In this document: piece by piece, positions 7,470 through 22,778 of the stretch
How the letters are laid out: each line of letters begins with the position of its first letter
Position numbering within the stretch: position 1 is the first letter of the stretch
Assembly: GCA_016187835.1 (NCBI GenBank)
Contig: JACPIY010000029.1
Location: forward strand, 1 to 32,190
DNA from: Deltaproteobacteria bacterium
GTDB taxonomy: Bacteria > Desulfobacterota_D > UBA1144 > Nemesobacterales > CSP1-2
Length of the DNA: 32,190 nt
Direction: 5' to 3'
The notes under the pieces: model-generated
The model's input: only the letters and a program-made list of their open reading frames with translations
What the model was told of the DNA's origin: nothing
Databases searched by the model: none
Translations under genes and position numbers: made by a program

Positions 7470-8327
7470 ATGGATGAAAGAGATGTTTACATGGCTAAGG
7501 AGGCATTGCAGTCTGCAATGAAGAAAGGACGTATGAGGCTGGCAGTGATTATTGGAGCAATTCTAGTCGGTTTTCTGTTTTTACATCCATGGGTTCAGAT
7601 TGGGGCAGGTGAAAGAGGGGTTGTCCTTAATTTTGGCGCTGTTCAAAAGAATGTGCTTGGAGAAGGGCTGCACTTCAGGGTACCTATAATGCAGAGGGTT
7701 GCCATAATGGATGTCAAGGTTCAGAAGGCAGTGACTGATGCCGCATCTGCCTCGTCTGATCTTCAGGATGTGACATCATCGGTTGCGCTTAACTATCATG
7801 TCATACCTGATAAGGCAAATGTTGTCTATCAAACCATTGGGGTAGAATTCAAGGAGCGTGTTATAGACCCTGCAATACAAGAGGTAATGAAAGCTGTGTC
7901 AGCCAAGTATTCAGCAGAAGAGCTTATCACAAAGAGGCCAGCGGTAAGTGAGGCAATGAGAGCATCCCTTGCTGAAAGGCTCCTGGCGTACAACATAGCA
8001 GTTGATGCGGTTTCTATCGTCGGTTTCAGCTTCTCCAAGATATTTATGGAAGCCATTGAGTCAAAGCAGACAGCAGAACAGCTTGCACTAAAGGCAAAAA
8101 GAGACCTGGAGAGGATAAAGATAGAGGCAGAGCAGAAGATTACGGCGGCACAGGCAGAGGCAGAGTCCTTGAGGCTGCAGAGAGCAAATATTTCAACAGA
8201 TCTTATAGAGCTTAGAAAGATAGAGGCCAATCTCAAGGCTATAGAAAAATGGAATGGGATACTCCCCCAGGTTACAGGTGGCGGCGCAGTGCCATTTATT
8301 GGCGTAGGTGAGATACAGAAGAGATAA
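7470..8327 (+). CDS. SPFH/band-7 (prohibitin/HflKC-like) membrane protein
   Basis: N-terminal TM helix. SPFH core (RGVVLNFGAVQKNVLGEGLHFRVPIMQRVAIMDVKV). C-terminal coiled coil. SD AAGGAGG 8 nt upstream. Confidence 0.85.
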   Translation: MDERDVYMAKEALQSAMKKGRMRLAVIIGAILVGFLFLHPWVQIGAGERGVVLNFGAVQKNVLGEGLHFRVPIMQRVAIMDVKVQKAVTDAASASSDLQDVTSSVALNYHVIPDKANVVYQTIGVEFKERVIDPAIQEVMKAVSAKYSAEELITKRPAVSEAMRASLAERLLAYNIAVDAVSIVGFSFSKIFMEAIESKQTAEQLALKAKRDLERIKIEAEQKITAAQAEAESLRLQRANISTDLIELRKIEANLKAIEKWNGILPQVTGGGAVPFIGVGEIQKR

Positions 8328-8351
8328 CCGAGTAATCATTGGCGGTATCCA

Positions 8352-8636
8352 TTGGTTAGATATGTTATTCTGCTTACTATTGCAGGTATTGTGGGGAGCA
8401 TTATAGCTATAAGAAAAGGGCACAGCCCGATATGGTGGTTTATACTATGTGCCCTTTTCCCTTTGCTTATTATTGTTGTTGCATTGCTTCCACCTATGGT
8501 ATCTAAAGGGTATACCAAAAAGTGCCCTTACTGTGCAGAGATCATTAAAGAAGATGCAATAGTTTGCAAGCATTGTGACAGGGAGCAACCTATAGAGATG
8601 GTCAAGATAGAGAAGGATTCAGATCTTGAATCATGA
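8352..8636 (+). CDS. Small two-TM membrane protein with C-terminal zinc ribbon
   Basis: Two hydrophobic helices followed by CPYCAEII...CKHCD (CxxC...CxxC). TTG start assumed from the ORF track; start is uncertain. Confidence 0.55.
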   Translation: MVRYVILLTIAGIVGSIIAIRKGHSPIWWFILCALFPLLIIVVALLPPMVSKGYTKKCPYCAEIIKEDAIVCKHCDREQPIEMVKIEKDSDLES

Positions 8637-8984: not shown

Positions 8985-9353
8985 ACTGGCCTAAGAGAAA
9001 GATGCGCGCAATGAATTTTAAGAAGAAACTGTTGAAAGCTTGACTATTCAATTAAGAGAATAAAACAATGCAAAGGCGCCCGTTAAAGGAAGGCTGCAGT
9101 TCCTATGCGTCTAAAAACCGGGGAATGCAGAACATGAATTTATGACCACATACCCTAATACAATTTATGAGGAGGACTGCTTGATGATTTCCGCAAAGCA
9201 CTTAAGGATGAAATTGAAGTTGCTAAACGGAATTCTTCGTATAGTGCTATACCACTAAGCAATGGCCATAAAGTAGCTCAGCTCAGCTCCGCTTTCCAAT
9301 ATGCTTTCCTGATAGATACTGTTCTGAATGCTCCTGATGGCGCACCCGGTGAC

Positions 9354-12300
9354 TTGCTAGTGCCAGGTAAACCCCCGCTTGAGGTCACAATAGTTTCAAC
9401 CGAAGGACTCCGCCTAGTTGTAAGCGTTAATATTGATCTTGGTCAATACGTTCCAACTGCGCGACTACAGACTAATCTAACCATTCTCATGCGAAAATTA
9501 ATTGAACGTATCGAGAAAAATGCATCTGCTGCTAATCCTGCCGCCTCGCGAATGCTTGGTAATAGCCCTGTTTCTGGCGAATCCAAATCTATTCTAGAAA
9601 AAAATCTTAACGAGGACCAATTGAAAGCTCTTAACAGTGCACTTGGACGGAACCTCACTTTTATTTGGGGACCTCCCGGGACAGGCAAGACTCACACTAT
9701 TGGTACTATTGCTGAATACCTGTATCGTGATAAAAATACCGTTCTTATTGTGTCACACACAAATACGGCTGTCGACCAAGCCGTTAAACATGTTGCTACC
9801 GCCTTTAAGGAAAAACTAGGAATCGCCCTGTTACAGGGAGGTATCCTGCTTCGAATTGGCGATGTTCGTGATGAAGTACTCAAATCAGCATTTCCAGAGG
9901 TTCTAGTAAAGAATCAAGTTGAACGACAATTCAAGGAACTTGTCGAGAAAAGGGAGCAACTGGCTTCACAAAAGCAAGGCATGGAAGATGAACTGAATTC
10001 CCTTAACCGACAAATCACTATTATTGAATGGATTTCAGGTTCGGTTGGGGATATTCGTGCTTCCCAAAATCAAGTAAATGAACTTCATGAAAAGGAGCAT
10101 GCACTTTCAATATCGGAGCAAGAGCTTTCTGATCTCACGGACAAACAGACAGCACTCAGAAAGAAAGAACAATTGGCGACGAGGGTTCTCTCCTTAAAGA
10201 AGGAACTATCTGAAACAAAATCAAAAGAGGGTGAATTACAGCAAAAGCTTGATTCGCTTTCGTCTGAAATCAGTACAACAACATTGCAACTTCATCGCCA
10301 GAAGGAAATCTATGAGATTGCCAAACGAATAGAACCTTTACGTAAAGAATTGGCATCCTACACCTCAATTGACAAGCAAAAAGCCGCTATTGCCGAGATT
10401 TACTCCAAAATTTCCGAGCATTCAAGCCAAATTGCTGATCTCCAAACCGCCTTTAATAACGCTACGAAAATCCTAGAACAATCATGTAGCTCTGGTGCAA
10501 TGATGCGCCTTTGGAAACGACTTCCCAAACCTGAAGAACAGCAGATTGCTGTCAACACAGTAAAAACCCAACTTGATAGTGCCATCAATGAAAAGGCAAA
10601 TGTTCAAAAAACCTTTGAGACCTATGAAGACCTTCTCATACGAACAGAAAAGCTAGCTGCCGAGCTTTCCAAATACTCACATATCAGTGACTATGCCCAA
10701 GAAACGGCGAATTTGGAAAAGGCCAATGACTCGTTATCAGTGCTCAACCAAAAGTCAGCCGAGCTAAAAGATAGGGTTGCATCAGTTTTAAGAGCGATAG
10801 CTACGCTACAAGCTGAAATAGATAAAGGTATTACTGAACTCAGTGCTGACCCAAACGAAGTGTTGGCTGACGTTAGTAATCAGTTGAAATATTTCTCCGA
10901 TCTCAATGAAGTAGTCAAAAGCATTGGCTCAGATTGTAGGGTGATGCGCTCTCAATTGACATCCATCTTAACCCATATGCTAGAGTGTCTTACGGTCTGG
11001 GGGCTTGTTAATTCCAAGCCGACTGGCGTTGAGGGAATGCTTCTTCTAATTAAAGAGACCCATGCGGCAGTAGGTGCAAACTTTGCATCGTCCGACTTGT
11101 ATTCACTAAACAATAAGGCAGGTGAATTGCGAGTCGAGATATTCCGATTATCTTCTGAAATCTCAGAGATAGAGGACAACCTATCTCAGGTAGAAAAAAT
11201 CGTAATTGCCAAAGCTGCCATTATCGGTGCAACTCTAACAAAAATATATCTGAGTGACGACATTCAAGGCCGGAAATTCGATACGGTCATAATAGACGAA
11301 GCATCTATGGCACCGATTCCGGCTCTATGGGTAGCCGCCTTATTGGTAGAGAGAAACCTTGTGATTGTTGGAGATTTCATGCAGCTTCCGCCGATTGTTC
11401 TTTCAAATAATACGTTAATCCAGTCCTGGCTTGGTAGAGATATCTTCGAAGCATCAGGGGTCAGAGATCTTTGGGAGAAGGAGGAGCCACCAGAATATTT
11501 CATTCCACTTACAGAACAACGGCGTATGCTACCGCAAATAGCAGAAATCGCAAACTTGTTTTATAAAGGGAATCTCAAAACACGACCTGACCAAATAAAT
11601 CTAAACGATGACAATTTCCTATCGTGGTATAACAAAGATTGGCCATACGATAATCCTGTGCTTCTTGTGGACACGGGTTCTCTTAATGCATGGGTTACAA
11701 GCGTAGTCAAGAACGGGAATACAAGCAGACTTAATTTTCTTTCTGCAACAGTCTCAATAGACATTGCTGAACAACTTCTTCTGCCGGGCCGTCCCCGGAG
11801 GCAGGAAGGTGCTCCCAAGCGTATTTTAATCATTTCTCCTTATCGTGCTCATGCAAAATTGGTAAGTATTCTTCTCAAAGAAAACGATGCGATACAGGAT
11901 GATGTCATTTCTGGAACGGCACACAGCTTTCAAGGGTCTGAAGCCTATGTCGTTATTTTTGATATGGTAGCGGACGAACCACATTGGCGTGTCAACTTAT
12001 TTATGCCTGACTTGGATGACCAGCTCAAGAGTCTTCTAAACGTGGCTTTGACAAGGGCGAAAACACGACTGATTGTTTTAGGCGATTTTAATTATTGCCA
12101 ATCTCACGGGGAAAAGGCTTTTCTTGGAAAATCCTTACTACCTTTTCTATTAAAGAAATACCCGCGTGTAGATGCCTCACAAATCATACCTGAAGGTCTG
12201 GCTTCAAGAGCAGCAAAAACACAGATGCGCATGCTTGGTGGCTCTATCGAGCCAGATTCCGACCGTATTGTGGTGACTCAAGCAGATTTCTATCGTGTTC

Positions 12301-13106
12301 TTTCTACGGATTTCTCACGCGCTACGAATCGTATAGTTATCTATTCTCCTTTTATTACCCAAGACCGTGTAGCATTTTTACTGCCCCAAATGCAAGCGGC
12401 CGCTTCTCGTGGCATTACGATATTCATTCTGACAAAATCTCATTCAGAACGTTCTAAAACAGAACTCAACCTTTATAGAAAGTTGGAAAACCAGCTTTCA
12501 GAAATTGGAGCTGTTATTATCCACAAACTGCGAATGCATGAAAAGCTAGTCTTTATTGATGACAATATTACATGGTCTGGTTCTTTGAACCCATTGAGTT
12601 TCTCAAATACTCAAGAAATAATGGAACGTCGAAAAAGCTCTTCCGTCTTACAGGACTATTTTAAAATATTGCGGCTTGAGGAACTTCTATTAGTTCCTGG
12701 TAAGCCTGAATCGAAATGCCCCATCTGTGGTTCTGAAATGATAGCTGCAGAGGGTGCGGATGAACCGTATTATTGGCGGTGTGCTAATGATGACTGTTAT
12801 TCACGAAGCATTGACCAGCCCTATCCTATTGACGGAATGTTAACATGTGGTTCTTGTAATTCAACAGTAGAGTTTGGGTATTGGGGTGATTATCCTCATT
12901 GGCGTTGTTGTTCGAATACGAGACATCGGCAGAAAATCTTCAAGTCTCATTTGCGACTACCGAAGATGGCTGCCCTAGTGCCAAAATCAGAACGAAAGAA
13001 ATTATGTAGGCTGCTTTCCATTGATGATTTTGATTCATTCATTATTGGAGATACCCATCAGCGGAATGGCATTGTTCAAAGTAGTCTTTTCGGGGATGAT
13101 AATTGA
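9354..13106 (+). CDS. Large fusion protein: Upf1-like SF1 helicase (AAA_11/AAA_12 type) with ~430-aa coiled-coil insertion + single-HKD PLD-family nuclease + tandem topoisomerase-type zinc ribbons. True start probably upstream (frame is open from 9171)
   Basis: Walker A GPPGTGKT (nt ~9669). Q-like LNEDQLKAL. Motif II VIIDEASM (nt ~11296). Motif IV FIPLTEQRRM. Motif V/VI SFQGSEAYVVIF and ALTRAKTRLIVLGD. PLD HKD motif HEKLVFIDDNITWSGSLN (nt ~12535). Cys clusters CPICGSE...WRCANDDC and CGSCNS...WRCCSN. Confidence 0.85.
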   Translation: MLVPGKPPLEVTIVSTEGLRLVVSVNIDLGQYVPTARLQTNLTILMRKLIERIEKNASAANPAASRMLGNSPVSGESKSILEKNLNEDQLKALNSALGRNLTFIWGPPGTGKTHTIGTIAEYLYRDKNTVLIVSHTNTAVDQAVKHVATAFKEKLGIALLQGGILLRIGDVRDEVLKSAFPEVLVKNQVERQFKELVEKREQLASQKQGMEDELNSLNRQITIIEWISGSVGDIRASQNQVNELHEKEHALSISEQELSDLTDKQTALRKKEQLATRVLSLKKELSETKSKEGELQQKLDSLSSEISTTTLQLHRQKEIYEIAKRIEPLRKELASYTSIDKQKAAIAEIYSKISEHSSQIADLQTAFNNATKILEQSCSSGAMMRLWKRLPKPEEQQIAVNTVKTQLDSAINEKANVQKTFETYEDLLIRTEKLAAELSKYSHISDYAQETANLEKANDSLSVLNQKSAELKDRVASVLRAIATLQAEIDKGITELSADPNEVLADVSNQLKYFSDLNEVVKSIGSDCRVMRSQLTSILTHMLECLTVWGLVNSKPTGVEGMLLLIKETHAAVGANFASSDLYSLNNKAGELRVEIFRLSSEISEIEDNLSQVEKIVIAKAAIIGATLTKIYLSDDIQGRKFDTVIIDEASMAPIPALWVAALLVERNLVIVGDFMQLPPIVLSNNTLIQSWLGRDIFEASGVRDLWEKEEPPEYFIPLTEQRRMLPQIAEIANLFYKGNLKTRPDQINLNDDNFLSWYNKDWPYDNPVLLVDTGSLNAWVTSVVKNGNTSRLNFLSATVSIDIAEQLLLPGRPRRQEGAPKRILIISPYRAHAKLVSILLKENDAIQDDVISGTAHSFQGSEAYVVIFDMVADEPHWRVNLFMPDLDDQLKSLLNVALTRAKTRLIVLGDFNYCQSHGEKAFLGKSLLPFLLKKYPRVDASQIIPEGLASRAAKTQMRMLGGSIEPDSDRIVVTQADFYRVLSTDFSRATNRIVIYSPFITQDRVAFLLPQMQAAASRGITIFILTKSHSERSKTELNLYRKLENQLSEIGAVIIHKLRMHEKLVFIDDNITWSGSLNPLSFSNTQEIMERRKSSSVLQDYFKILRLEELLLVPGKPESKCPICGSEMIAAEGADEPYYWRCANDDCYSRSIDQPYPIDGMLTCGSCNSTVEFGYWGDYPHWRCCSNTRHRQKIFKSHLRLPKMAALVPKSERKKLCRLLSIDDFDSFIIGDTHQRNGIVQSSLFGDDN

Positions 13107-13467: not shown

Positions 13468-14139
13468 ATGGGGTATATCATGAGAAAAAGGACCTGGATA
13501 CCTACAAGACTACTATTTGTCATTATACTCTTCGCATTAGTCATAAGCGGAGAGGCTCTGTGGACTTTCAGTGGGGGAGATCCCAGAGGAGAGTGGGTCC
13601 TCGTAACGGAGGCAGTGGATGGCGATACTATCTCCGTAGGGCGCGGGTGGAGGTCTACCAAGGTGCGTCTTATCGGTGTTGATACTCCTGAAACAGTTCA
13701 CCCGGAAAAACCTATCGAATTTTTAGGTCCAGAGGCCTCGGAGTTTACCAAGAAGCAACTGGAAGGGAAAAAGGTGTATCTCGAATTTGAGCCTTCTAAT
13801 TATTATGATAACTACGGGCGTCTACTTGCCTATGTGGTTCTTCAGGACGGTACACTTTTCAATGTTGAACTAATCAAACAAGGGTATGCTCGTGTTGTTG
13901 CTCCTTCCCCGTTCCATCGCTATAAAGAGTTCCGTAGTTATGAACAAGAGGCACGGGTAAAGGGGTTGGGTCTTTGGGCTGCAAAGGATATTTGTAGAGA
14001 GATTATCGGTAACAGGTCGTCGAAGATATATCGTCTTCCTGGCGATGCTGGCTGTGGCCGGATTAAGGAAGAAAACCGGGTCTACTTTGATACGGAGGAG
14101 GGGGCAATAAAGGCAGGGTATAGACGAGCGAAGAGGTAA
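13468..14139 (+). CDS. Secreted/membrane-anchored thermonuclease (staphylococcal nuclease, SNase family)
   Basis: N-terminal hydrophobic signal/anchor. RLIGVDTPET matches the SNase catalytic motif. Possibly starts at ATG 13480 (MRKRTW). Confidence 0.85.
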   Translation: MGYIMRKRTWIPTRLLFVIILFALVISGEALWTFSGGDPRGEWVLVTEAVDGDTISVGRGWRSTKVRLIGVDTPETVHPEKPIEFLGPEASEFTKKQLEGKKVYLEFEPSNYYDNYGRLLAYVVLQDGTLFNVELIKQGYARVVAPSPFHRYKEFRSYEQEARVKGLGLWAAKDICREIIGNRSSKIYRLPGDAGCGRIKEENRVYFDTEEGAIKAGYRRAKR

Positions 14140-16932: not shown

Positions 16933-17946
16933 TTAGACAGTTGCATCAATTTTGTCTACAATCTCACGGATAACATCCATCGGATTAATTCCCTCAGCCT
17001 GAGCGCGGAAGTTTAGAACGATTCTGTGCTTAAGAATAGAAGGTGCAATCGCCCTTACATCATCCGTGCTTGGCGTGAACCTGCCGTCAAGAATGGCTCT
17101 TGCTTTGCTTCCCATAATTAAGAACTGTGAGGCTCTGGGTCCTACACCCCAGGAAACACACTTATTTACAGATTCAGGAGTGCTCGAATCGTTTGGTCTT
17201 GTTGCCCTTGCAATTTTTACTGCATAAGCGGCAACATGCTCGGAGACGGGGACTCGATGAACCAGGTCTTGATATTCTAGAATTTTTGAACCATCAAGCA
17301 CCTTTCTAAGCTGGGGTTTGTAGGCACCTGTCGTGGTTCTTGCAATCTCTACCTCTTCATTGAGCGAGGGATAATCCACGTCAATCTGGAACATAAAACG
17401 ATCTAGCTCGGCTTCGGGCAGAGGATAAGTCCCCTCCTGTTCAATTGGGTTTTGAGTGGCAAAAACTAAAAAAGGCGGCTCTAATCTGTACGTTTCTCCA
17501 CCGACTGTGACTTTCCTCTCCTGCATTGCCTGAAGAAGCGCGGCTTGAGTTTTTGGAGATGACCTGTTTATTTCGTCAGCAAGAAGTATATTGCAGAAGA
17601 TTGGTCCCTTTATAAATTTAAAAAATCTATTTCCTGTGGTTACGTCATTTTCCAGAACTTCGGAGCCGGTAATATCTGAGGGCATGAGGTCTGGGGTGAA
17701 CTGAACTCTATTGAATTTCAGGTTTAGAATGTCGGCCAGTGTGCTTACGAGAAGGGTCTTTGCAAGCCCTGGGACTCCAACAAAAAGAGAATGTCCGGAG
17801 GACAGAAGAGAGATGAGCAAGAGCTCTATCACGCTTTTCTGTCCGACTATAATTTTCCTTATTTCTTCGAGAATCTCTTTTCTGACTCTAGAAACTTCTT
17901 CTACCTTTCCTACGTCGTCTTCGCTTCCGTATTCGTATTTGCTCAT
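16933..17946 (-). CDS. MoxR-family AAA+ ATPase
   Basis: Walker A GVPGLAKT, Walker B LLADEINR, and overall MoxR-like sequence. Confidence 0.9.
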   Translation of the reverse strand: MSKYEYGSEDDVGKVEEVSRVRKEILEEIRKIIVGQKSVIELLLISLLSSGHSLFVGVPGLAKTLLVSTLADILNLKFNRVQFTPDLMPSDITGSEVLENDVTTGNRFFKFIKGPIFCNILLADEINRSSPKTQAALLQAMQERKVTVGGETYRLEPPFLVFATQNPIEQEGTYPLPEAELDRFMFQIDVDYPSLNEEVEIARTTTGAYKPQLRKVLDGSKILEYQDLVHRVPVSEHVAAYAVKIARATRPNDSSTPESVNKCVSWGVGPRASQFLIMGSKARAILDGRFTPSTDDVRAIAPSILKHRIVLNFRAQAEGINPMDVIREIVDKIDATV

Positions 17947-17960
17947 TTTAAGTCCTCTAA

Positions 17961-18075
17961 ACTAGAAGTTCCAAATTACAAGCACCAAATTACAAATAAA
18001 TCACAAAGTCTGAGGCACCAAATCTCAAACAGATACCAAATAACAGATTCCTAATTTCCAAACGTTTGGAATTTG
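17961..18075. repeat. ACCAAAT-rich repeat family C, copy 1 (intergenic)
   Basis: Tandem caagcaccaaattacaaat / ggcaccaaatctcaaac units and a perfect 16-nt palindrome ttccaaacgtttggaa. Motifs caagcaccaaat and ccaaatctcaa recur at 25055..25226. Confidence 0.6.
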
Positions 18076-19695
18076 TCATTTGGTATTTGTGTTTTCATAC
18101 GGCTGAGTAACTACGTCGTCTTCGAGTAGTACATTTAAAACCTTTTTCTCAAATTCTTCTAAATCGGTTCTTCCAAGCTTTTTATATATTGAGATTAGAG
18201 CTATATGAATTTCGGGGTTAAAAGGGTTTATGGATATCGCTTGAGTATATGCTTCTTCTGCCTTATTTAAGTTTCCCTTTTCCAAGTAGATTTTCCCAAG
18301 ATTAGTGTAGGTTTCTATATATTCAGGATGTAACTCAAACAGAGGTGTTAGTCTTTCTTTTGCTTTATCGTATTCCCCATAAGCGCTTAGAGTTGAAGCC
18401 AGACGGTTTAGAATAATGGGCGATAGGGGGTCAAAGTGAAGCGCTTTTTCATATTCATAAGTTGCGGCTTTCAGCCTCCCCCTGGTTCTGAGCATGTCGC
18501 CGAGTCTTGTATAGTTTTTAGCCTGGGCATTGTCCAGTTCAACCAGGTCTTCGCTTTGGTCTTTGGACCCTGCTCTCTTTTCCTCAAATCTCAGTTCCTT
18601 TACTTTTACTTGGGGGGTTCTTTCTTTAAGGTTCCTCGATCTCAGGTCTCTTATCCATGTGTTGTAGAAGTCGGCAAAATTCTTTTTTGTAACCTCTTTT
18701 ATAGCCACCTTATAATCGTTTTTTTCTTTGATATTGTTAAGCAAATCCACAAGCGATTTATTCCCCCATTTTTTTACAAGAAAGTCCACAATCGTTCCGA
18801 CTTGCGCAAATGCAAGCTGGGCTTCATAGGCACTGCTTAGCTTTCCGAGGGATGGATGCATTTTCTCTATTGGAACGAGATTGTTTGCCTTAAGCGCCTT
18901 TGCAAGGAGGGTTTCGTAAAAAGGATTTATGACATTTCTCTTCTTTTCTTTCCATCTTTTTTCTTCAAATTTGGCAATACCTTCATGCAGCCACACAGGA
19001 ACGGTATTGCCGCTTTTAAGAAATATAAGATAATGGGTGTATTCATGTGCCAGTGTATCAAGCCACGTATAACCTTGAGGCAGAAGTCTTGGCGATAAGA
19101 TCATTATGCGGTTGAACTTGCAGATTCCTACTACCCCTGTGGTTTTTATATCATTTTCTGAAAGGGTAGAAGCGAGTGTAAAACTTTCAAGATTAGGATA
19201 TATCTCAACAACTACCGGCTCGCTGGGGTAGCTCTCTAAATCGAGCCCGATTTCATAGTAAACCCGTTCAAGCACGTCTTCTGCATAACTCACGAGAATT
19301 GAATCCTTTGAATGGGAGTATCTTATTATGAAATGCTCAGTTTTTACTTCTTCGAATCTTTCCCCATTCTTGGCGACCTTAATTATATAATCTAAAAAAC
19401 CACCGATTTCTTTATCCGCGGGAATTAGTGCATGCGACTTTTCTCCCAGCTCTCTCGCTTTAGTATAGTTGCTTTTATAAAACTCAACCTGAGACTTGAA
19501 AAAATAAGCAAGAGCTTTATCATCAGGACTTTCTGCGAGTTTTAAGATTCTATCCGCGGCTTGTGATGCTTCAGATACCTGCCCACTGAAAAGGTATTGT
19601 TTTCCGCTTTGTAGCTCTATTTCAAAGTCCGGTTCTTTAGCCAAAGCGTTTATACAGAGGGAGAAAAACGAAATTAGAAAGAGTAAACTTTTCAC
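18076..19695 (-). CDS. Secreted peptidase-MA-like (HExxH) domain protein with C-terminal TPR repeats
   Basis: Signal peptide MKSLLFLISFFSLCINALA. LAHEYTHYL...WLHEGIAKFEE gluzincin-like motif. C-terminal TPRs (AEEAYTQAISINPFNPEIH). In an operon with moxR. Confidence 0.7.
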   Translation of the reverse strand: MKSLLFLISFFSLCINALAKEPDFEIELQSGKQYLFSGQVSEASQAADRILKLAESPDDKALAYFFKSQVEFYKSNYTKARELGEKSHALIPADKEIGGFLDYIIKVAKNGERFEEVKTEHFIIRYSHSKDSILVSYAEDVLERVYYEIGLDLESYPSEPVVVEIYPNLESFTLASTLSENDIKTTGVVGICKFNRIMILSPRLLPQGYTWLDTLAHEYTHYLIFLKSGNTVPVWLHEGIAKFEEKRWKEKKRNVINPFYETLLAKALKANNLVPIEKMHPSLGKLSSAYEAQLAFAQVGTIVDFLVKKWGNKSLVDLLNNIKEKNDYKVAIKEVTKKNFADFYNTWIRDLRSRNLKERTPQVKVKELRFEEKRAGSKDQSEDLVELDNAQAKNYTRLGDMLRTRGRLKAATYEYEKALHFDPLSPIILNRLASTLSAYGEYDKAKERLTPLFELHPEYIETYTNLGKIYLEKGNLNKAEEAYTQAISINPFNPEIHIALISIYKKLGRTDLEEFEKKVLNVLLEDDVVTQPYENTNTK

Positions 19696-22600
19696 TTTAT
19701 TATCCTATCATAATATCTCTTATTAAGTTCGCTGTAGCCCTCGGGTGATCCCTCTTTTAAGGCTTTTAAAATACTCTCTTTAAATTCCTTTCCGATCTGT
19801 GATTCTTCAGGTGCCGGGATTTCTACGTAGCCTGTATCAACTCCCTGGGTGCCCTGTTGAAGTTGGTTGCCTAAAACTAGTGGAACAGGTAGTCCCGTTC
19901 CTTTTGCGCTAAGCTGGTATTTCTCGAGGAGTCCTTCGGTTTCTTCACGTGCCTTCTTGAGTGTTTTTATTGCCTCTTCCTGATTTGAGATCGCTTTAGA
20001 TATTTCGGTTTTTTTTAGATTGTCGTATGCGCCACGCATGAATCCCTTTGATTCACCCACTTTTTCTCCGATTTGGGGTATGAGTGAAGAATCGTCTTGA
20101 AATTCACCAATATCGTTCCCAAGTTGCGAGGTTTCTTTTTCAAGTTCATCCTGTCTTTTGGCAATCTGATATGATTGTCCATCTCTGGTTCCCCCTTGCA
20201 AAGCATTCTCAAGGTCTTGGCGAATCTCTCTGGCAAGTCCTTCGGATTTTCCTATCTCTCTATCCCCTTTTGCAATTTCCCAAAACAGTTTACTTAGGTT
20301 TTTAAGTCCTATGGTGTCTTCTTCAACCTCTTTTGCACGTTTCAGGGCTTCCTCAAACTCTAATGCTTGAAGCCAATGCTCCAGCTCATCGGTTTTGCGA
20401 AGTGCTCTGTCAATAAGAAAAGAGCCTTCTATGATTTCACTTTCAGGAATATCTGGAGAAACCTTTGCCTTGGTTTCCGAAAGCATGTTTTTTAATTGCT
20501 CGATTTTCTTTCTTTCTCTTTCTAGAAAATCAGACAGGTTTTCTTTTTTGGGCGGAGATTTGAGGAATGATTCTTTAAGATTTTCGGTTCTTCCTTTAAG
20601 GTTTGTCTGCTCCTTTTCAATGCTTCCAATTCTTGAGATTATCTCGTTTAATCTATTAATTTCCTTTGAAAGCGAAGCAGAGCTAAATGACTGAAAACCG
20701 CTTTCGAGTGAAGCGATCATACTTTGAAGACCCGTTTTAAGACTTGAAAGCAAATCTACGGCTTCGTCAATTTTTCCCCGCTCTGCAAGCTTCATAATTT
20801 CATCGAGCTTTCCCTGTAAGTCAATGGACTCAAATGCATCAGGATTTAAAAATCCGTCGTAGATGTCTCCGCTTATAGAACTTAGCTTCTCCGTTAACTC
20901 AGACATCAGGCTTCTTAGCTCTTCTATCTTTTTGGCTATTTCTTTTCTCGTTGTTTCATCTCCGTTTTGCTTTAGCTTCTCGAGTAGCTCTGAAAGCTCA
21001 TTGTATTTACTGAGCGTATCTTTTCCGTAAAGCAGAGATTCTCTCAGCTTTTCTCCTTTAAGCATTGAGTCCAAGAATAATATGTCATCCTCAAATTCAT
21101 TTATTTCTTTTGTTATAAGACTATCTAGTCTTGGTAAATCAGTTATCAAAAATGAAGGAATTAAATCATGACGTTCATCCAGCAAATCCTGAATCCTTAT
21201 CTTCATACCGGAAAGTTCCAGGAAATAGGTATAGTCTGAAAAATCGTCGTTTCTCATTTTCCCAACTATTTTGTCTAGGGAGCTTAGAGATCTTTCAATC
21301 TTACTCGTTAAATCTTCCTGTATGCTTTTTGTCATGCTGATATTTATCTTGCTGTAATCAGATTGATTCTCGCTTTGCCCAGGTGTCTGATCGCCATCCG
21401 AATTTTGATCTGAATTTAAAGGCCAATTTCCGAATCTTGCATTTTCGACTTCGTCCCCAAGTATATCCAAGAATTCATCTAAAAGCTTTTCTGCTATTAT
21501 TAATATGTCTTCATGTTTTTTTCTCGGGTTCTTGAACTTAACTTTAATTACGTTTGAAACCCCGATCTTAGGACCGGATACTGTATCGTTGTCATACGCC
21601 TTTATTCTTACCTCTAAAGTTTCACCCGGATCAGAGTCAACTGAACCAAGCTCCCATAGAAACTTACCTTCAAGAAATTTTAACTCTTCCTTTGTTTGCT
21701 TTATCAACCTGCTTGACTCGCCTTTCTTTGTATTCCAAGCAAGCATTAGTTTCGTAATTCCGAAATCGTCGTCCGCTCTGTAGTTAACCTCGAGTTTTTC
21801 TCCGCCATCAATTTCTATTACATCTCCACCGGGATGTTCAATATTTACTCTTGGATTTTTGTCTTCCTCCATAGTGATTTTAAAAACCCTTGACCTATAT
21901 TTTCCGCTCTTATCTTCAACAAAAAAACTCCCGCTCGAGAGTATTCTGAACTCCGCCTTAATTTTCCCTTTTTCAGAGTTTACAGGAATGACATGCCCTT
22001 TCTCAATGACGAGATTCCCTCTATCTAGAAGCTTCAGGGGAGTTGCTTCAAATGCAACATTGGTTCCCTTTATAGCTTTTATATCTCCTGTGCTTCCCTT
22101 TATTTCCTGAGGAGGAATCTCAGTGTAATCGGGGTAGTTGTAATTTACTTTAATATCCGCAAGTTCAAGGAGATAGGGCTCTGTTGGTGGGAAGATTTTA
22201 GTGCTGAATAAAAAACTATGGAACTCTCTTGGTGAAAATATCAAAGAGGTTAGGGATAAAACAAAAACGGCGGCGATCGCCTTCGAGTAACTCCTTATTT
22301 TCTCTTTAGGAACGGCCGGAGATAAATCAAGCGATTCAATCCTACTAGCAACTTTGTCTATATGCGCACTGACAAGGGGCTTCGAAACGCCTAGTTTTTT
22401 CACGCTTTGAGTCTCCGCCATAAGAAGGGCGGCGTTTAATGTGTCTTCTCCCAGACCCGGAGAAACTCTCTCAAGCTCCTTTGCCAGTTCCGTTTTTCTC
22501 TCCTTTTTTAATATGGGAGGAAGCAGGAACTTTACAAACCCGAAAAACAAAGCCGCTATAGCTAAGGTTTTTAGGATAGAGAAATAAAGATTATTTGAGT

Positions 22601-22778
22601 AAATATGGGCAAAAAGAGAGATTAATCCCAGAGATGCACATAGAACCAATAAAAATTCTATCGTGCCATTTGTTAAACAAACCCTTTTTCGTTTCTTTTC
22701 TAGGCTTCTTAGAACTTTATCTAGAATCGCTTCTGAACCGGTATTCATCAAATAAAATAGTACCGCAGAGTTAGGCAA
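19692..22778 (-). CDS. Large membrane-anchored coiled-coil protein (1028 aa), first gene of the MoxR operon; BatD/DUF4175-like is possible
   Basis: Three N-terminal TM helices, then a long charged coiled-coil region with K/E-rich heptads. 4-nt overlap with the downstream gene. Confidence 0.6.
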   Translation of the reverse strand: MPNSAVLFYLMNTGSEAILDKVLRSLEKKRKRVCLTNGTIEFLLVLCASLGLISLFAHIYSNNLYFSILKTLAIAALFFGFVKFLLPPILKKERKTELAKELERVSPGLGEDTLNAALLMAETQSVKKLGVSKPLVSAHIDKVASRIESLDLSPAVPKEKIRSYSKAIAAVFVLSLTSLIFSPREFHSFLFSTKIFPPTEPYLLELADIKVNYNYPDYTEIPPQEIKGSTGDIKAIKGTNVAFEATPLKLLDRGNLVIEKGHVIPVNSEKGKIKAEFRILSSGSFFVEDKSGKYRSRVFKITMEEDKNPRVNIEHPGGDVIEIDGGEKLEVNYRADDDFGITKLMLAWNTKKGESSRLIKQTKEELKFLEGKFLWELGSVDSDPGETLEVRIKAYDNDTVSGPKIGVSNVIKVKFKNPRKKHEDILIIAEKLLDEFLDILGDEVENARFGNWPLNSDQNSDGDQTPGQSENQSDYSKINISMTKSIQEDLTSKIERSLSSLDKIVGKMRNDDFSDYTYFLELSGMKIRIQDLLDERHDLIPSFLITDLPRLDSLITKEINEFEDDILFLDSMLKGEKLRESLLYGKDTLSKYNELSELLEKLKQNGDETTRKEIAKKIEELRSLMSELTEKLSSISGDIYDGFLNPDAFESIDLQGKLDEIMKLAERGKIDEAVDLLSSLKTGLQSMIASLESGFQSFSSASLSKEINRLNEIISRIGSIEKEQTNLKGRTENLKESFLKSPPKKENLSDFLERERKKIEQLKNMLSETKAKVSPDIPESEIIEGSFLIDRALRKTDELEHWLQALEFEEALKRAKEVEEDTIGLKNLSKLFWEIAKGDREIGKSEGLAREIRQDLENALQGGTRDGQSYQIAKRQDELEKETSQLGNDIGEFQDDSSLIPQIGEKVGESKGFMRGAYDNLKKTEISKAISNQEEAIKTLKKAREETEGLLEKYQLSAKGTGLPVPLVLGNQLQQGTQGVDTGYVEIPAPEESQIGKEFKESILKALKEGSPEGYSELNKRYYDRIIK

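Follow-up and report, generated by a model that had tools for sequence, protein, structure and literature searches.

In type II Mokosh, a single protein combines an N-terminal COG1112/Upf1-like helicase with a C-terminal PLD nuclease; this protein, MkoC, belongs to the YjhR family of Escherichia coli (Millman et al. 2022). Type II Mokosh has been validated by experiment, and among its defining properties is a protection against phage that depends on the ATP site of the helicase and on the active site of PLD. It is a 132-kDa monomer in solution, as determined by mass photometry, and in one panel it provided defence against a single-stranded DNA phage only (bioRxiv 10.1101/2025.07.10.664194). 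In a related helicase clade, the CnuH proteins of the CoCoNuT systems, a large helical, partly coiled-coil insert is found after Walker A, and this coiled-coil-containing insert has been modelled and proposed as a binding partner of the effector CnuE (Bell et al., eLife 2024, PMC11090510). The window analysed here is the whole 32,190-bp contig of a metagenome-assembled genome named 'Deltaproteobacteria bacterium'; it contains a gene (9142..13106, forward strand, as are all features of the protein described below) in which a stand-alone Upf1-like helicase of superfamily 1B (SF1B) is fused to a PLD nuclease with a single HKD motif and to two zinc ribbons. An original prediction, made from the letters of the window, had placed between the helicase motifs Ia and II of this protein a coiled-coil insertion of about 430 residues, considered unusual and SMC-like and possibly a sensor arm or a dimerisation device. 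We conclude that the insert is very probably one intramolecular, antiparallel, two-stranded coiled-coil hairpin, extended and anchored by both strands in the RecA1 domain.

Residues are numbered from the TTG codon at 9354, the first canonical in-frame start of an open reading frame of 1250 codons (9354-13106) that encloses the predicted interval, 9880-11270; in the source record the gene is annotated from an internal Met as an AAA family ATPase of 1205 amino acids. The limits of the whole gene were set from the list of open reading frames, from Pfam and by comparison of the N-terminus with that of the closest homologue, P0002. Pfam recognises the motor through AAA_11 (3.6e-35, in two stretches) and AAA_12 (5.3e-25), both exceeding the gathering cut-off, the latter corresponding to the RecA2 domain (residues 709-911, 11478..12086). 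Motif I (Walker A, GPPGTGKT; residues 106-113, 9669-9692), motif Ia (TVLIVSHTNTAVDQAV; residues 129-144, 9738-9785) and motif II (Walker B, VIIDEASM; residues 645-652, 11286-11309) were located in the sequence and, like the reading frame and the quoted peptides, lie where the original prediction had put them. Residues 84-147, with motifs I and Ia, align to chain positions 179-243 of human UPF1, and residues 637-700, with motif II, to positions 334-396; residues 592-689 also align to IGHMBP2 317-413. The helicase half was modelled with AlphaFold2 (AF2) over residues -60 to 925 (window 9171-12128), using 92 homologues, with a mean local confidence score (pLDDT) of 86.2; Foldseek against the PDB retrieved Upf1-family SF1B helicases only, namely SETX (3.8e-23), Upf1 (1e-20), IGHMBP2, Dna2, Sen1, Aquarius and ZNFX1. 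Motifs I, Ia and II, the AAA_11 and AAA_12 matches and the modelled core fold all indicate that the host protein is an Upf1-like SF1B helicase.

The insert interrupts RecA1 between motifs Ia and II, at the place occupied by domain 1C in Upf1 and by the 'prong' in Sen1/SETX, as the UPF1 alignment and Foldseek both confirm. Between the same aligned blocks 489 residues are found here and 90 in UPF1, where this stretch contains domain 1C, equivalent to the Sen1/SETX prong. The prediction had assigned both 1B and 1C domains to this position; this holds for 1C and not for 1B. Indeed, the equivalent of domain 1B, formed by N-terminal stalk helices and a beta-barrel (model residues 3-116, 9177..9518; helix 3-23, strands 27-101 and helix 104-116 in AF2, with Foldseek matches to Upf1, SETX, IGHMBP2 and Dna2), is N-terminal of motif I, as in Upf1, and this region spans the TTG at 9354, beginning upstream of it. 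Residues 153-157 (9810-9824), right after motif Ia, are present in this protein and in about 20 of the 92 aligned homologues, including the three closest, while most of the family lacks them.

Walker A and Walker B are separated by 531 residues, and from the end of motif Ia to Walker B there are 500 residues, more than the approximately 450 first estimated. The helical insert proper comprises residues 194-620 (9933-11213), that is 427 amino acids, in agreement with the predicted size; the predicted interval corresponds to residues 176-639. In the AF2 models the insert is made of eight helices (186/194-335, 339-379, 382-387, 393-439, 447-496, 500-548, 559-576 and 582-620) with six breaks (336-338, 380-392, 440-446, 497-499, 549-558 and 577-581), a description that does not match the 'almost uninterrupted' coiled coil initially reported. 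A model of the insert only had a pLDDT of 90.9 and the same helix boundaries as that of the helicase half. Along the long helices, hydrophobicity averaged over the family repeats with a period of 3.42-3.54, shorter than the 3.6 that an isolated amphipathic helix has; helix 194-334, of 141 residues, has a period of 3.42, and its observed power was reached in none of 500 shuffles. Pro and Gly account for 1.2% and 3.6% of the insert, compared to 5.5% and 5.2% elsewhere in the protein, with an enrichment of Glu, Lys, Gln and Ser. When the insert alone was searched against PADLOC, it matched only coiled-coil arms, those of LmuB (7e-9), JetC and PbeC, and against NCBIfam it matched Rad50 and SMC-related models; all these matches are far below the family cut-offs and therefore reflect a likeness of composition and periodicity. 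The coiled-coil character of the insert exceeds chance. Sequence and fold searches of the PDB gave matches to the helicase core only, and a comparable arm was found in no solved structure.

The predicted structure is an extended hairpin and not the globular domain that, according to the original prediction, would have spoken against it. The ascending strand (residues 194-379, 9933..10490) is defined by AF2 helices 194-335 and 339-379, with pLDDT of about 80-97, by the hydrophobic period and by conservation. The tip (residues 380-397, 10491..10544) is marked by conservation, by the centre of symmetry of paired deletions and by the centre of the covariation band. The descending strand (residues 393-620, 10530..11213) is supported by AF2 and by covarying pairs, and its last helix, 582-620, leads back to RecA1. 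Natural length variants of the arm bear directly on this topology. Among 265 members of the helicase-PLD clade, the Walker A-to-B spacing falls into classes of 510-539 (about 146 members), 410-429 (35), about 391 (6) and 284-300 (11), with a few intermediate values, and in every shorter class the residues are lost as two similar-sized blocks flanking residue 380-390. The paired deletions measure 54+54 in one alignment, with residues 286-339 and 434-487 missing, and 47+47, 58+77, 90+85, 105+121 and 130+142 in an independent L-INS-i alignment, and their centre of symmetry is at residue 378-387.

Covariation was calculated as mutual information with average product correction over 96 long-class sequences, with an effective number of sequences (Neff) of 73. 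The top anti-diagonal band has i+j=773, corresponding to a centre at 386.5 (z=3.9 among 703 bands), and the best i+j is between 765 and 786 in every 30-residue window across 195-384 (starts 195-355). The band 764-784 contains nine of the 40 strongest covarying pairs, where 1.8 would be expected (p=6e-5); pairs include 268-511, 245-526, 272-508, 336-439 and 202-572. The centres obtained from paired indels and from covariation agree, and therefore the hairpin is placed from about 194/579 at its base to a tip at about 386. Each strand, of about 186 residues, is about 27 nm long at a rise of 1.485 Å per residue. That the insert is not a hairpin, being instead a compact helical bundle or a parallel intermolecular coiled coil of two chains, is very improbable; the predicted template modelling score (pTM) of the AF2 models, merely 0.55-0.65, would be compatible with such arrangements, while the anti-diagonal covariation band and the paired deletions about the tip led us to reject both of them.

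Conservation is low along the arm, where the top residue has a frequency of about 0.33-0.45, compared to 0.7-0.96 in the motor, and it is concentrated in four islands: E225-W226, the motif A.RI.P.R.E....P (324-336), the tip and W549. No other island of the insert is as conserved as the tip, whose conserved segment, 381-396, comprises G381, a short helix (382-387) with the invariant R385, the stretch K388-R-L-P-K-P-E394 and Q396. The positions of the invariant W226 (10029-10031) and of the conserved W549 (10998-11000), both identified by conservation, add up to 775, and the two residues should face each other, forming a Trp-Trp level near the base of the arm. Although column identity in the arm is about 35%, about 90 of the 120 closest homologues keep a Walker A-to-B spacing of 523-531, and no spacing mode of the helicase-PLD clade is near the baseline of 155. 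These comparisons of homologous sequences indicate that arm length is under selection and that the arm is a real, selected structural element. Homologues lacking the insert, considered by the original prediction as a possible argument against it, were not found within the helicase-PLD clade, in which the shortest Walker A-to-B spacing is 248-300.

The net charge of the arm is acidic to neutral, and the tip segment alone is basic (+3 over residues 370-389). The latter, as the sole basic stretch, is one of the points in favour of a direct action of the arm on nucleic acid, as an enlarged prong or pin at the front of a 5'-3' translocase, with the function of a wedge, a ruler or a feeler; in the ruler or feeler version the arm would sense an end, a fork or a bound protein about 27 nm ahead, or it would set the distance between the motor and the cut site. 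The insertion point is shared with Upf1 1C and with the Sen1 prong, which has a role in unwinding, and conserved, quantised lengths are those expected of a ruler. However, a strand-separating pin requires only the base of the hairpin, not 27 nm, and the arm surface has the acidic to neutral character given above; we regard this explanation as unlikely.

The helix break on the ascending strand (residues 335-338, 10356..10367), seen by DSSP in both AF2 models, is a predicted 'elbow'; 335 and 441 add up to 776, within the pairing band, and the break on the descending strand (residues 440-446, 10671-10691), given by the AF2 helix boundaries, is located opposite to it, with sums near 776. A two-sided discontinuity, with an elbow about 45 residues below the tip, is thus predicted by the models. 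Such an elbow might serve autoinhibition, with the arm folding at 335-338/440-446 onto the PLD or zinc-ribbon module and releasing it on binding of ATP or substrate, in a way comparable to the ClpB M-domain or to the SMC elbow. This is quite improbable: both AF2 models show straight helices on either side of the break, and the 418-residue spacing class drops the elbow-adjacent region (or the elbow itself, depending on gap placement) and keeps the rest of the protein.

Downstream of the motor, the PLD-like nuclease domain (PLDc_2; residues 986-1096, 12309..12641) was recognised by Pfam with 5.7e-09 and 36.4 bits, against a cut-off of 27 bits. It contains the catalytic HKD motif H1062-E-K-L-V-F-I-D1069, that is H1062-x-K1064-x4-D1069 (12537-12560), and a search for HxK(x)4D finds exactly one such motif in the protein. 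The two C-terminal zinc ribbons (12714..12947) were identified from Pfam matches to Zn_ribbon_recom and DNA_ligase_ZBD at residues 1121-1198 and from the position of Cys residues; the ligands, of the Cys4 type, are C1122/C1125/C1143/C1148 and C1165/C1168/C1185-6. Nucleases with one HKD motif, such as Nuc, Zucchini and BfiI, are active as dimers, in which two chains are required for each active site.

On these bases, the arm may be seen as a rigid spacer of fixed length, with both strands anchored in the ATPase domain, whose conserved tip would contact a partner; taking structure and mechanism together, we consider the case for this proposal to be evenly balanced. The likeliest partner would be a second copy of the same protein, because a single-HKD PLD nuclease needs two chains to form one active site; a role of the arm in dimerisation is advanced only tentatively. 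Since a single HKD needs two chains and MkoC at rest is a monomer, the simplest model would be one in which pairing of two molecules, mediated by the arm or by the substrate, licenses cleavage, so that the nuclease would act only once two motors have come together on a nucleic acid. Both the binding of a partner by the tip and the switching of the nuclease are what we infer from these features. The 'sensor arm or dimerisation device' initially suggested is a reasonable hypothesis in view of the single HKD motif and of the conservation of arm length and tip.

Several points weigh against a fixed-length spacer with a partner-binding tip. Each covariation z-score is modest when taken singly, with a Neff of about 73, and the acidic to neutral arm is not an obvious nucleic-acid surface. 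Neither a hinge domain nor a Cys hook was found at the apex, since residues 380-392 consist of a short helix and a loop without Cys. The search at four loci from different phyla found no conserved partner gene and no defence island, and the context in the window is a housekeeping one. Finally, the copy on this contig may be a recent pseudogene, an N-terminally truncated copy or the result of an assembly error. An upstream ATG is present at 9142, the frame is open from 9171 and a frameshift occurs at about 9175. From the ATG the window codes for MTTYPNTIYEE; then, compared to the metagenomic locus L079 (89% identical), 16 nucleotides (AAATATCTTTACCGCC) are missing after GAGGAGG, at about 9175, and this deletion shifts the frame at codon 12, the downstream part of the gene reading on in another frame. 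In the closest homologue, P0002 (89% identity), the N-terminus reads MTTYPNTIYEEEISLPPLLDDFRK. Whichever explanation of the deletion holds, the arm is a property of the family.

The family counts 432 matches at E <= 1e-5 among the scored candidates, and 645 representatives at 50% identity were obtained at E <= 1e-30 for the half of the protein from motif II to PLD. Members are found in uncultured bacteria of many phyla and in Methanoperedens-type archaea, with about 60% identity, and a spread across phyla at this level of identity suggests horizontal transfer. When plasmids were searched by tblastn, the matches were all type I MkoA-like kinase-helicases, and none was a helicase-PLD fusion with a coverage of 80% or more of the query. 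In relatives without PLD (from Bacillus, Peribacillus, Balneolaceae and others) the two Walker motifs are 153-176 residues apart, which corresponds to no arm. The nearest relatives in cultured organisms (L005 and L008-L010, from Bacillus, Peribacillus and Guptibacillus) are helicases of 740-770 amino acids with the same N-terminal barrel, no arm (spacing of about 155) and no PLD; these arm-less proteins are useful comparators.

Neighbouring genes in the window code for MsrAB, a band-7 protein, an SNase, a NuoM-like protein and MoxR, while at other loci they code for RecQ/DUF900, URO-D/GAPDH or toxin-antitoxin proteins. The family, seen in no defence island and beside no conserved neighbour, may serve either defence or repair. 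This context also bears on another explanation, in which a second protein (an effector, or a factor of host or phage origin) would dock on the arm, as proposed for the CnuH insert with CnuE (PMC11090510). A specific protein contact would fit both the conserved tip and the fixed length, and CnuH provides a precedent in a related helicase clade. However, the nuclease is here already fused in cis, the four loci share no conserved neighbour, and neither McrBC-like genes (CnuB/McrB GTPase, CnuC/McrC) nor CnuE-like genes were found in the window or in three homologous loci; docking of a separate protein thus seems rather unlikely.

Other genes surround the helicase-nuclease on the contig. An SNase homologue with an N-terminal hydrophobic signal or anchor (13468-14139, forward strand) lies 360 bp downstream; no SNase gene was found beside three homologues in other genomes, and this gene is probably unrelated to the helicase-nuclease. 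Directly upstream (7470-8636, forward strand) there are an SPFH/band-7 protein and then a 94-amino acid membrane protein with a C-terminal zinc ribbon, a typical SPFH pair in which no connection with the arm was seen. At 16933-22778, on the reverse strand, a MoxR-type AAA_3 ATPase, a TPR/peptidase-MA protein and a 1028-amino acid DUF4175 protein resemble a MoxR-associated, Bat-like operon.

Among known systems, the architecture is shared with MkoC of type II Mokosh: both are single polypeptides in which an Upf1-like COG1112 helicase precedes a single-HKD PLD nuclease, and both have a length-conserved insert at the same site. PADLOC assigned to the window protein MkoA with 3.9e-59 and MkoC with 1.3e-45 (154 bits), the best stretch of the latter being limited to positions 773-1118 of the 1136 in the profile. 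A genuine MkoC of about 1,178 amino acids was rebuilt from the frameshifted enterobacterial locus L078, and its two halves score 576 and 804 bits over profile positions 1-562 and 614-1135. The window protein, at 154 bits, thus gives no full-length, high-scoring match to the MkoC profile. The L078 protein has its Walker A at residue 298, followed after about 403 residues by Walker B; in the MkoC family (98 proteins) the spacing is 389-395, with 391 in 79 of the 98, corresponding to about 240 extra residues. At the arm site, the type I MkoA profile (PDLC03920) has about 34 positions, compared to about 407 residues here; a second MkoA profile has about 144, and about 400 separate motifs I and II in the MkoC profile. 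The most conserved motif of the MkoC insert, ES..Y..FSW.P....KR, sits exactly mid-way through it; it recalls the centrally placed RLPKPE tip and may correspond to the tip of a homologous hairpin. The MkoC insert and that of the window protein show no similarity by BLASTP, and homology between the two is therefore unproven; the MkoC alignment (98 proteins) has a Neff of only 16. Differently from MkoC, the arm is here about 135 residues longer, about 180 residues instead of about 297 precede Walker A, two extra zinc ribbons are present at the C-terminus, and the gene is outside defence islands. Judged from its sequence, the window family is best described as distantly related to type II Mokosh, with a long arm and with zinc ribbons.

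Enterobacterial MkoC/YjhR genes are very often broken: yjhR of K-12 is a remnant of 338 codons, other E. coli loci are cut by the insertion sequences IS3, IS66 and IS1, L078 (4119-7653) and L077 are frameshifted or fragmented, the loci of this kind also include L074 (10016-11032), L075 and L076, and most database entries are 'partial'. A protein search with the K-12 yjhR remnant gave, among the matches listed, only fragments of at most 588 amino acids.

Mokosh-type helicase-PLD fusions are widespread antiviral proteins, proposed as the prokaryotic relatives of MOV10L1/Zucchini, a pair belonging to the piRNA pathway; the whole helicase-PLD clade, genuine MkoC included, has a length-conserved insert at the 1C/prong site. 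The tip residues, the elbow and the natural length variants produced by paired deletions offer handles for relating arm geometry to nuclease activation.

The CnuH insert is similar in being large, helical, partly coiled-coil and located after Walker A, a likeness that comes from its published description. Unlike the fused nuclease described here, CnuH is encoded, in a near-invariant association, together with McrBC-like CnuB/C, and also with a separate CnuE effector, an operon that has no counterpart at this locus. In the literature, a coiled-coil insert in Mokosh or SF1 helicases was found only in the CoCoNuT paper, and no paper found describes the arm in Mokosh or in this family. The qualification of 'unusual' was overstated, considering the published helical insert of CnuH and the MkoC insert, with its spacing of about 391, at the same place. 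Upf1 1C and the Sen1/SETX prong share the insertion point in RecA1, with core fold matches at Foldseek E of 1e-18 to 1e-23; they differ in size and shape, since the eukaryotic elements are short and partly globular, with about 90 residues between the aligned blocks in UPF1, whereas 489 residues are present here, with a 27-nm rod.

Of the SMC-like character originally proposed, the topology stands, an antiparallel hairpin between Walker A and Walker B. The arms of SMC, Rad50 and MukB emerge from an ABC head with signature motifs and not from an SF1 RecA-like helicase, and they end in a hinge or zinc-hook domain, whereas here the tip is a motif of about 15 residues and the arm is about half as long; the resemblance is one of analogy, not of homology. 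It is improbable, in our opinion, that an SF1 helicase has convergently evolved an SMC/Rad50-like device, in which tip-to-tip pairing would tether two motors, on the same nucleic acid or on different ones, about 55 nm apart, or folded together, and a composite HKD site would form only then. If true, tip-to-tip licensing would be a mechanism described for no helicase-nuclease. The dynein stalk and the M-domain of ClpB/Hsp104 differ in belonging to AAA+ rings, and the dynein stalk bears a globular binding domain at its tip. The hairpin of the window protein is an extreme variant of an already known class of inserts, which includes the 1C/prong insertion, the helical insert of CnuH and the insert of MkoC; it is one more case, outside the SMC, Rad50 and AAA+ families, in which a long antiparallel coiled coil separates Walker A from Walker B.

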